Positions 54,630-55,987 of a stretch of DNA of 56,525 nt are shown piece by piece (the stretch's first letter is position 1; every line of letters begins with the position of its first letter). Both the position numbers and the translations under genes were made by a program. Source of the DNA: an uncultured Legionellales bacterium (GTDB lineage Bacteria; Pseudomonadota; Gammaproteobacteria; JAHCLG01). The stretch is taken from NCBI GenBank assembly GCA_964352905.1, contig CAYGTS010000002.1, forward strand, positions 1 to 56,525, in the 5' to 3' direction. The notes beneath the pieces are model-generated. The model had not been told where the DNA came from. It ran no database searches and saw nothing but the letters and a program-made list of their open reading frames with translations.

Positions 54630-54650
54630 AAATCTAAGCATATAAGATGA

Positions 54651-54698
54651 CAGTAATTCCCGGCGTGATGTTGAATGATTCAAGAACGGGAATTGCTG
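54651..54698. mobile_element. family-2 mini form (48 bp)
   Basis: CAGTAATTCCCGGCGTGATGTTGAATGATTCAAGAACG-GGAATTGCTG. 9-bp repeat ATAAGATGA at 54642-54650 and 54699-54707. Confidence 0.88.
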
Positions 54699-54703
54699 AT
54701 AAG

Positions 54704-55987
54704 ATGATGCAAATGATGAATCTTAATGCATGGCTAACTTACATTAAGCAACTGAACACCAAGGAAATTGATCTAACGCTTGCGCGTGTTCAAACTGTTG
54801 CTAACTTTTTACAGTTAACACGTTTTAGTTGTCCTGTCGTGATGGTTGCTGGTACTAATGGCAAAGGATCGGTTGTTACAGCCTTAGAATCCATTTTTAG
54901 CGCAGCAGGGTATCGTGTTGCCAGTTACACCTCACCCAAATTATTTACACTCACTGAACAAATTAAAATTAAGCAGCAACCTGTCACTGAAGACGAACTT
55001 GTTAATGCATTACACGTGATCAATAATAACCGCGCTGATCTGCCACTCACTGAATTTGAATTTATAACGCTTGCAGCACTGTATTTAATAAAGCAAGCCG
55101 ATTGTGATTTAATTTTATTAGAAGTGGGCATGGGTGGGCGTGATGATGCTGTGAATGTGGTGGAACCTAACATCAGCATTATAACCAGCATCGATCTTGA
55201 TCACATGCAATTTTTAGGTGAAACGCGTGATAAAATTGCTGCAATAAAAGCAGGTATTTTCCGGTCACAAAAAATTGCAATTTGTGGCGATCCTAATCCG
55301 CCGCAATCATTATTAGATTATGCCCATAAGATTAATACAAAATTATATCTGATCAATAAAGATTTTTCTTATGCTAGTGATAATGAATCATGGTATTGGA
55401 ATTTTAAAGGGATTTGTGAATATTGCCAATTACCTTTCGGCAATATTGATTTGTTTAACGCTGCCATTGCCTTAATGGCAGTTAAATTACTTGAGGACAA
55501 AATGAGTGTTACTAAACAAGCCATTTATCAAGGCTTAGATAAAGCCACATTACCAGGACGCTTTCAAGTAATCGAAAATGAACAAATAATTATTTTCGAT
55601 GTCGCACACAATCCTGCTGCTTGCGAAAATTTAAAAAAGAAAATTCAACAACGCTATCCTAAGCATAAAATTAAAGCACTAGTGGGCATGCTTAAAGATA
55701 AAGATATTAAAAAATCATTATTAAGCATGAGCGATATTATCGATAGTTGGTATGTGGCATCGTTAAATGTTGAGCGCGGTGCTGCTGCTGAAAAACTCAC
55801 TAAAATTTTAGCTGAAAATCATATTACGTCCTTCCATGCTTATGACAATCTTGCCACAGCCTATCAAGCAGCAAGTAGCGAATTGCTAGAAGATGAAGTG
55901 TTAGTTGTTTTTGGATCGTTTATTACTGTGGCAGAGTGTTTGGCGTTGCATAAAGGACAGCAAACCTTATGTAATATAACTACATAA
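54704..55987 (+). CDS. folC: bifunctional folylpolyglutamate synthase/dihydrofolate synthase
   Basis: VAGTNGKGS P-loop and Mur-ligase fold motifs. The ancestral start is ATG at 54704. The track ORF (54647) starts in a duplicated start codon and reads through a 48-bp mini-element. Confidence 0.88.
   Translation: MMQMMNLNAWLTYIKQLNTKEIDLTLARVQTVANFLQLTRFSCPVVMVAGTNGKGSVVTALESIFSAAGYRVASYTSPKLFTLTEQIKIKQQPVTEDELVNALHVINNNRADLPLTEFEFITLAALYLIKQADCDLILLEVGMGGRDDAVNVVEPNISIITSIDLDHMQFLGETRDKIAAIKAGIFRSQKIAICGDPNPPQSLLDYAHKINTKLYLINKDFSYASDNESWYWNFKGICEYCQLPFGNIDLFNAAIALMAVKLLEDKMSVTKQAIYQGLDKATLPGRFQVIENEQIIIFDVAHNPAACENLKKKIQQRYPKHKIKALVGMLKDKDIKKSLLSMSDIIDSWYVASLNVERGAAAEKLTKILAENHITSFHAYDNLATAYQAASSELLEDEVLVVFGSFITVAECLALHKGQQTLCNITT

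Follow-up and report, generated by a model that had tools for sequence, protein, structure and literature searches.

In-frame fusions of MITEs with genes and MITEs located at gene boundaries are already well described, the RPEs, ERIC, BOX and QMITE1/2 being examples (PMC10969869, PMC5896051). The Rickettsia palindromic elements (RPEs) are about 150 bp long and are found inside many conserved open reading frames (Ogata et al., summarised in PMC10969869). QMITE2 of Coxiella burnetii has a length of 150–190 bp, variable direct repeats of 7–11 nt and a strong hairpin; full-size as well as small versions of it are known, and it extends a few bases into the ends of genes (Wachter et al. 2018, PMC5896051). 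Small hairpin-forming repeats at or in gene starts and ends are also known as the Correia elements of Neisseria and as ERIC and BOX. Such repeats can influence expression as well as the structure of the mRNA, and fusions with open reading frames occur occasionally (PMC10969869, PMC2229807).

Here we describe a short repeat at the 5' edge of folC in an uncultured Legionellales bacterium. The window, i.e., the whole stretch of DNA that was analysed, comprises 56,525 nucleotides and is part of a metagenome-type assembly of 2.54 Mb in 200 contigs with 39% G+C. The folC case is ordinary, a MITE having inserted at the boundary of a gene. Its value as an example is that it is clean and reconstructable: the target-site duplication copies an ATG, and the insertion of 57 bp keeps the frame.

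The folC element resembles the RPEs in being short, palindromic and mobile, in having a bacterium of the intracellular type as host, and in leaving the frame of the host gene open. The RPEs add element-encoded residues to housekeeping proteins, whereas the translation of the added codons at folC is doubtful; moreover, the RPEs sit in open reading frames as a habit of the family, whereas here only one of the 68 duplication-flanked copies, the one at folC, is enclosed by a frame that is open over 120 codons or more, and this at its extreme 5' edge. Recurrent in-frame insertion into conserved open reading frames, as known for the RPEs, was not found among these copies, the others abutting gene ends. 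Correia elements duplicate the dinucleotide TA and carry promoter and RNase III features, whereas the duplication described here comprises 9 bp and no promoter-like site was found near the folC element. QMITE1 and QMITE2 are MITEs of an order related to this host, and by description QMITE2 resembles the present family in size, direct-repeat length and hairpin. The gene overlaps reported for QMITE2 are, however, all C-terminal (PMC5896051), whereas the folC element lies at a 5' edge, and the small versions of QMITE2 are without inverted ends or direct repeats (PMC5896051), whereas the 48-bp form found here keeps both.

The element at the 5' edge of folC

The 48-bp element is flanked by two copies of ATAAGATGA, which form a perfect 9-bp duplication and are spaced 57 nt apart from start to start (Table 1). 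The 12-nt ends of the element are inverted repeats with a single mismatch, which corresponds in RNA to a U-G pair; the predicted RNA fold of the element is a 12-bp stem that closes a loop of 24 nt (−19.5 kcal/mol). A family of about 175 bp has an A-end that matches the left 39 nt of the element and another end that matches its last 9–12 nt; the deletion junction lies at a CGG microhomology. Shuffled sequences gave an expectation of 0 matches for the exact and the 3-mismatch searches. Element and duplication together are a transposition product, far beyond what chance could provide. An earlier note on this DNA had described a mini-element whose 9-bp duplication contains an ATG, and had counted 57 bp, that is, 19 stop-free codons in frame with folC, for element plus duplication. 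ATAAGATGA is indeed seen twice within 54642–54707, and the coordinates and the arithmetic of that note are all correct.

Table 1. Features around the 5' edge of folC, with positions in the window
Feature	Position	Strand	Remark
Upstream 157-aa ORF	54156..54629	+	signal-peptide-like N-terminus, no Pfam family
Left copy of the target-site duplication, 9 bp, ATAAGATGA	54642..54650	+	holds ATG 54647
In-frame extension of 19 codons, MTVIPGVMLNDSRTGIADK	54647..54703	+	derived from the element and one duplication copy
Internally deleted MITE, 48 bp, CAGTAATTCCCGGCGTGATGTTGAATGATTCAAGAACGGGAATTGCTG	54651..54698	.	
Left terminal inverted repeat, CAGTAATTCCCG	54651..54662	+	
Right terminal inverted repeat, CGGGAATTGCTG	54687..54698	+	holds GGGA 54688-54691
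Right copy of the target-site duplication, ATAAGATGA	54699..54707	+	holds ATG 54704
Four in-frame ATGs (54704, 54707, 54713, 54716; MMQMM)	54704..54718	+	candidate native folC starts
folC, MNLNAWLTYIKQL...	54716..55987	+	drawn from the start judged most likely

Starting at ATG 54647, the frame runs through MTVIPGVMLNDSRTGIADK into MMQMMNLNAWLTYIKQL... without a stop and forms a 446-aa open reading frame (54647–55987). The extended form would begin MTVIPGV..., and the peptides MTVIPGVMLNDSR and TGIADKMMQMMNLNAWLTYIK would point to it. This in-frame outcome is unremarkable, because an insertion of 57 bp always keeps the frame and three of the six combinations of phase and orientation of the 48-bp element are stop-free. 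We also considered that selection after the insertion had opened the frame. This was rejected, since the consensus 48-bp copy is likewise stop-free in the folC phase.

The upstream 157-aa open reading frame ends with a TGA stop 17 nt ahead of ATG 54647. Neither a promoter-like nor a terminator-like site was found between this open reading frame and folC, so that the two are probably co-transcribed. A search of the folC leader for Rfam families (e.g., the THF riboswitch) gave no match.

The MITE family in this genome

Relatives of the folC element are found in the window at 5400–5572 with the duplication AACTTGGCT and at 34506–34679(−) with the duplication ACCAAATAT. These share the ends of the folC element, are about 175 bp long and each have a 9-bp duplication of their own. 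In the whole genome 375 family ends were counted at no more than one mismatch to the 12-nt end, and 68 end pairs carry a 9-bp duplication with at most one mismatch (53 of them a perfect one). When shifted 9-mers were compared as a control, none of 260 end pairs gave identical sequences. A clear consensus was not seen among the duplicated targets, which are rich in AT (33% G+C). Most copies measure 172–176 bp, and there are deleted derivatives of 48, 62, 67, and 77–98 bp, some of these sizes recurring across sites; near-full-length matches to the family number 27 in 2.54 Mb, derivatives not included, and the elements have no internal open reading frame. The family thus shows the features of MITEs, namely terminal inverted repeats, a duplication of fixed length and variable sequence, and many small copies without a transposase gene. 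Many full-length copies are 98–100% identical and the family is absent from 30 relatives; it was therefore recently active in this lineage.

Exactly 48 bp were found for four copies (C2:54651, i.e., the folC element, C12:1983, C27:19857, and C188:134), which have four different duplications and share one junction, ...AAGAACGG joined to GAATTGCTG, at the CGG microhomology. The folC element and the copy on C12 differ at 2 of the 48 positions. The 48-bp form may be mobile in its own right; alternatively, resident full-length copies may have undergone the identical microhomology deletion repeatedly. Two further derivatives of 67 bp (C43:15118-15184 and C84:3071-3137) have a common junction at different sites with different 9-bp duplications, and the same was observed for two derivatives of 86 bp (C51:4273-4358 and C197:570-655). 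Since such deleted derivatives recur with a shared junction and distinct duplications, short derivatives that keep both ends may be mobilised. Derivatives as short as 48 bp, with just the two ends, recur at independent sites. The 48-bp copy at C12:1983-2030 is a nested insertion, as its target AATAGTTAC is the terminus (GTAACTATT...) of the second repeat family that is abundant in this genome.

An autonomous insertion sequence with matching ends (CAGYAATTCCCG) was not found in the assembly, and no plasmid match was obtained either; the autonomous partner may be missing because the assembly is incomplete. Several candidates for this role were considered and rejected. An intact ISAs1-type transposase of 386 aa (DDE_Tnp_1_assoc and DDE_Tnp_1; G000:C5:28323-29480, locus L105) is flanked by perfect 20-bp inverted ends, AGGGCGATTGCATCTTAATT, and has a decayed copy on contig C54; the ends of this ISAs1-like copy (AGGGCGATTGC...) differ from those of the MITE. 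The DUF4277 transposase on contig C37 has no such ends around it, and the PF01609 transposases of the genome are likewise without MITE ends. On contig C37 a stretch of 766 bp lies between two inward-facing solo MITE ends (G000:C37:14387-15152). It holds a gene for an ErpA/IscA-like Fe-S protein in a 143-codon frame and no transposase, and a matching 9-bp duplication was not seen around it. A collection of all genomes (about 600 Gb) was scanned for mini-elements with the pattern AATTCCCG-N18-40-CGGGAATT, which has 16 specified bases, and only scattered matches in unrelated phyla were obtained, as expected by chance for a pattern of this size.

Insertions hugging gene boundaries are routine in this genome. 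In ten of the 68 copies the stop codon of an adjacent open reading frame of at least 120 aa lies within the element, which shows that the elements often replaced native gene ends, and eight copies are situated at most 40 nt upstream of the first start of a long open reading frame. In the window, the open reading frame 28349–29734 ends 24 nt into the element at 29710–29883. Apart from folC, five long open reading frames have a frame that is open back into an upstream element (C12:31006-31085, C188:2175-2251, C80:8091-8351, C75:4798-5000, and C14:12278-12452). For three of these (C12, C188, and C80) the evident start is a downstream ATG with a good Shine–Dalgarno sequence, suggesting that frame extensions into the elements are usually incidental in this genome. 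The five sites are likely sources of over-extended gene calls.

FolC and the N-terminal extension

The protein encoded downstream of the element is a bifunctional tetrahydrofolate synthase/dihydrofolate synthase (409.7 bits with NF008101, cut-off 360) with the Mur ligase M and C domains (PF08245, PF02875). Its nearest FolC relatives, with 58% and 50% identity, come from genomes of uncultured Legionellales and Coxiellaceae. None of 119 FolC homologues, the N-termini of which are automatic gene calls, could be aligned with the 19-residue extension. A conserved Trp, which is residue 29 of the long open reading frame, is found at residues 6–10 in 87 of the 119 homologues and no later than residue 14 in 111, residue 9 being the commonest position (37/119). 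With starts at 54704, 54707, 54713, and 54716 this Trp would become residue 10, 9, 7, and 6, respectively, and all four positions fit the homologues; two homologues start with MNLNAWL and MNLSNWL, resembling a start at 54716. The position of the Trp and the lack of an aligned homologue indicate that the extension is lineage-specific and element-derived. The earlier note had made its reading depend on the extension not being conserved in element-free relatives, and this is the case for the 119 homologues.

No empty site was found in the relatives, where the nearest FolC is only 58% identical and the upstream gene is a different one. Exact scans of the metagenome collection for the reconstructed empty junction (GCATATAAGATGATGCAAATG) and for the 5' coding sequence of folC returned nothing, an exact look-up of the 446-aa protein led to no other contig, and the collections searched contained no strain-level relative.

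The 446-aa form is the choice of a gene caller and has an entry in the protein database. This gene call is probably 23 codons too long, and the extension is probably incidental and dispensable for making the enzyme. The main value of the present finding is practical: in gene calls folC is lengthened by 19 residues that derive from the element, and such extensions in MITE-rich genomes are suspect. An AlphaFold2 model of the 446-aa form showed a confident FolC fold (mean pLDDT 90.5, pTM 0.88), with a pLDDT below 50 for residues 1–11 and a mean of 67 for residues 11–20. According to this model the extension, if made, would form a loose tail, which FolC would probably tolerate; the extension does not resemble a signal peptide.

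The genome contains a second, full-length FolC-type gene (G000:C56:14197-15486, locus L228:298-1587). Its product of 429 aa is 35% identical to the FolC of the window and passes the cut-off for bifunctional FolC (372 versus 360 bits). The two nearest relatives (G001 and G002) likewise have two FolC copies.

Initiation of FolC synthesis

Which ATG is used by the ribosomes was inferred from the start signals and from the accessibility of the candidate starts. As a reference for the anti-Shine–Dalgarno duplex served 297 unambiguous starts of this genome, i.e., those with a single candidate near the upstream stop. Unambiguous starts of this kind show a normal Shine–Dalgarno signal with G enriched at −12 to −8, and the median duplex energy of the 297 is −4.2 kcal/mol, compared to −1.5 kcal/mol at random ATGs. 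Upstream of the target site no Shine–Dalgarno sequence was found; the duplex of −0.5 kcal/mol is weaker than at about 90% of the real starts. Hence there is no recognisable ribosome-binding site that the insertion could have displaced, and the displacement of the ribosome-binding region put forward in the earlier note is not secured. The same note had the folC start codon duplicated. An ATG was duplicated indeed, but its role as the start is not secured, as it is the first of four clustered ATGs. The Shine–Dalgarno support is weak at each of the five candidates (54647, 54704, 54707, 54713, and 54716).

The candidates were also scored with a position weight matrix derived from 467 of the genome's unambiguous starts, which gave 1.5 for ATG 54647, −3.0 for 54704, −2.8 for 54707, −0.6 for 54713, and 1.6 for 54716. 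The scores of 54704 and 54707 correspond to the 2nd percentile of real starts and that of 54716 to the 32nd; 54647 and 54716 are not separated by the matrix. In the reconstructed site before the insertion the fourth ATG already ranked at the top with 2.6, the remaining ones scoring between −0.5 and 0.4. Since 9 nt are restored by the duplication, ATG 54716 has kept its ancestral upstream sequence over 17 nt and ATG 54713 over 14 nt.

The accessibility of the candidates was calculated as the energy required to open the region from −15 to +12 in a context of ±90 nt, with percentiles taken among 250 real starts (median 6.8 kcal/mol). Short folding windows (−20 to +20, −4 to +37) halve the hairpin and so miss it, and opening energies with ±60–120 nt were used instead. 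Both copies of the duplicated ATG are located at the base of the hairpin, the stem of which begins at +5 of ATG 54647. The opening energies amount to 15.7 kcal/mol for 54647 and 54704 and 15.9 kcal/mol for 54707 (each at the 98th percentile), 9.9 kcal/mol for 54713 (82nd percentile), and 7.3 kcal/mol for 54716 (58th percentile); the ancestral sites would have required 7.6–8.8 kcal/mol (62nd–75th percentile). The ranking of the candidates was similar with other windows and contexts. In the wider window from −20 to +15, ATG 54716 costs 14.6 kcal/mol versus 9.9 kcal/mol before the insertion.

We propose the following explanation. At the 5' edge of folC, a MITE of the recently active family took the 9 bp ATAAGATGA as its target; its present form is a 48-bp deletion derivative which has kept both 12-bp ends. 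The sum of 48 and 9 is divisible by three and the element is stop-free in this phase and orientation, which makes the 19-codon frame a geometric by-product. FolC synthesis would still begin beyond the element, with the third or the fourth ATG of the MMQMM stretch (54713 or 54716) as the start. Owing to the duplication, 14 or 17 nt of native context are retained there, and the site is not part of the hairpin; the extended protein of 446 aa would be a minor product at most. On balance we favour 54713 or 54716 as the main start of FolC, within a native initiation region that has remained intact owing to the duplication and that the hairpin does not include. This downstream start may be the original one, untouched by the insertion. 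The earlier note had left the choice between an element-encoded leader peptide and an internal start; judged by the start model and the accessibility, downstream initiation appears the more likely of the two and the leader peptide the less likely.

An argument against a downstream start is that ATG 54647 has kept the whole native upstream sequence, including the distance of 17 nt to the upstream stop, which makes coupling or re-initiation possible; if folC needs translational coupling, this preserved context would favour ATG 54647. FolC would then be made mainly from this ATG with a MITE-encoded leader of 19 residues, and elongating ribosomes would melt the hairpin. The frame is open, the weight-matrix score equals that of 54716, and the modelled FolC fold is kept, so that the loose tail would probably be tolerated. 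On the other hand, this ATG is without a Shine–Dalgarno sequence, the stem of −19.5 kcal/mol follows at +5 and raises the opening cost to the 98th percentile, and the extension occurs in none of the 119 homologues. All in all, we regard main initiation at 54647 as rather unlikely. If the extension is translated after all, folC would illustrate on a small scale how a core enzyme gains residues from a mobile element, a principle known from the RPEs.

The native start may also have been the duplicated ATG, with initiation now taking place at its downstream copy (54704 or 54707) and the GGGA of the element serving as a substitute Shine–Dalgarno sequence. The duplex energy of this motif, −4.3 kcal/mol, equals the genome median, and a start at 54707 would place the Trp at its commonest position, residue 9. 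Yet GGGA is spaced 12–15 nt from these two ATGs, whereas the G-rich peak of the genome lies at −12 to −8, and it is buried in the stem (mean unpaired probability of 0.09 at −15 to −5 of ATG 54704). Given also the very low weight-matrix scores and the high opening costs of both ATGs, initiation at this place is improbable.

We further considered whether the hairpin between the two copies of the ATG is a newly acquired translational control element on folC, which seems quite doubtful to us. One possibility would be that the hairpin gates the synthesis of a long, MITE-tagged FolC versus the normal form; another would be that folC expression depends on temperature, or on a helicase or RNase III acting on the stem. 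If this were true, a mobile element of 48 bp would have created an N-terminal variant of a core metabolic enzyme.

The insertion could instead impair this folC by lowering its translation, as an early step of decay that is tolerated thanks to the second full-length paralogue. This paralogue passes the FolC cut-off, the hairpin raises the opening cost at most of the candidate starts, and elements have replaced gene ends elsewhere in this repeat-rich genome. However, the open reading frame is intact, scores well above the cut-off of the equivalog model and yields a confident fold, ATG 54716 is as accessible as before the insertion, and both paralogues are kept in the two nearest relatives, which suggests that both are needed. 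We consider an impaired folC unlikely.

That the insertion is an artefact of assembly, or is carried by just a fraction of the sampled population, is very improbable: although an assembly of 200 contigs with many near-identical repeats invites such errors, the element is short and lies within unique sequence, and its perfect duplication is like that of 53 other copies, a 9-bp duplication being nothing that a mis-join would make.

One minor observation was made further upstream in the window. At 53898–54033 (−) the Rfam family mir-5014, a plant miRNA precursor, gave a sub-threshold match of 27 bits, compared to a gathering score of 101. It was rejected as a real family match; the stretch is a copy of the other (178-bp) repeat family, and its resemblance to mir-5014 is the generic one of long hairpins.
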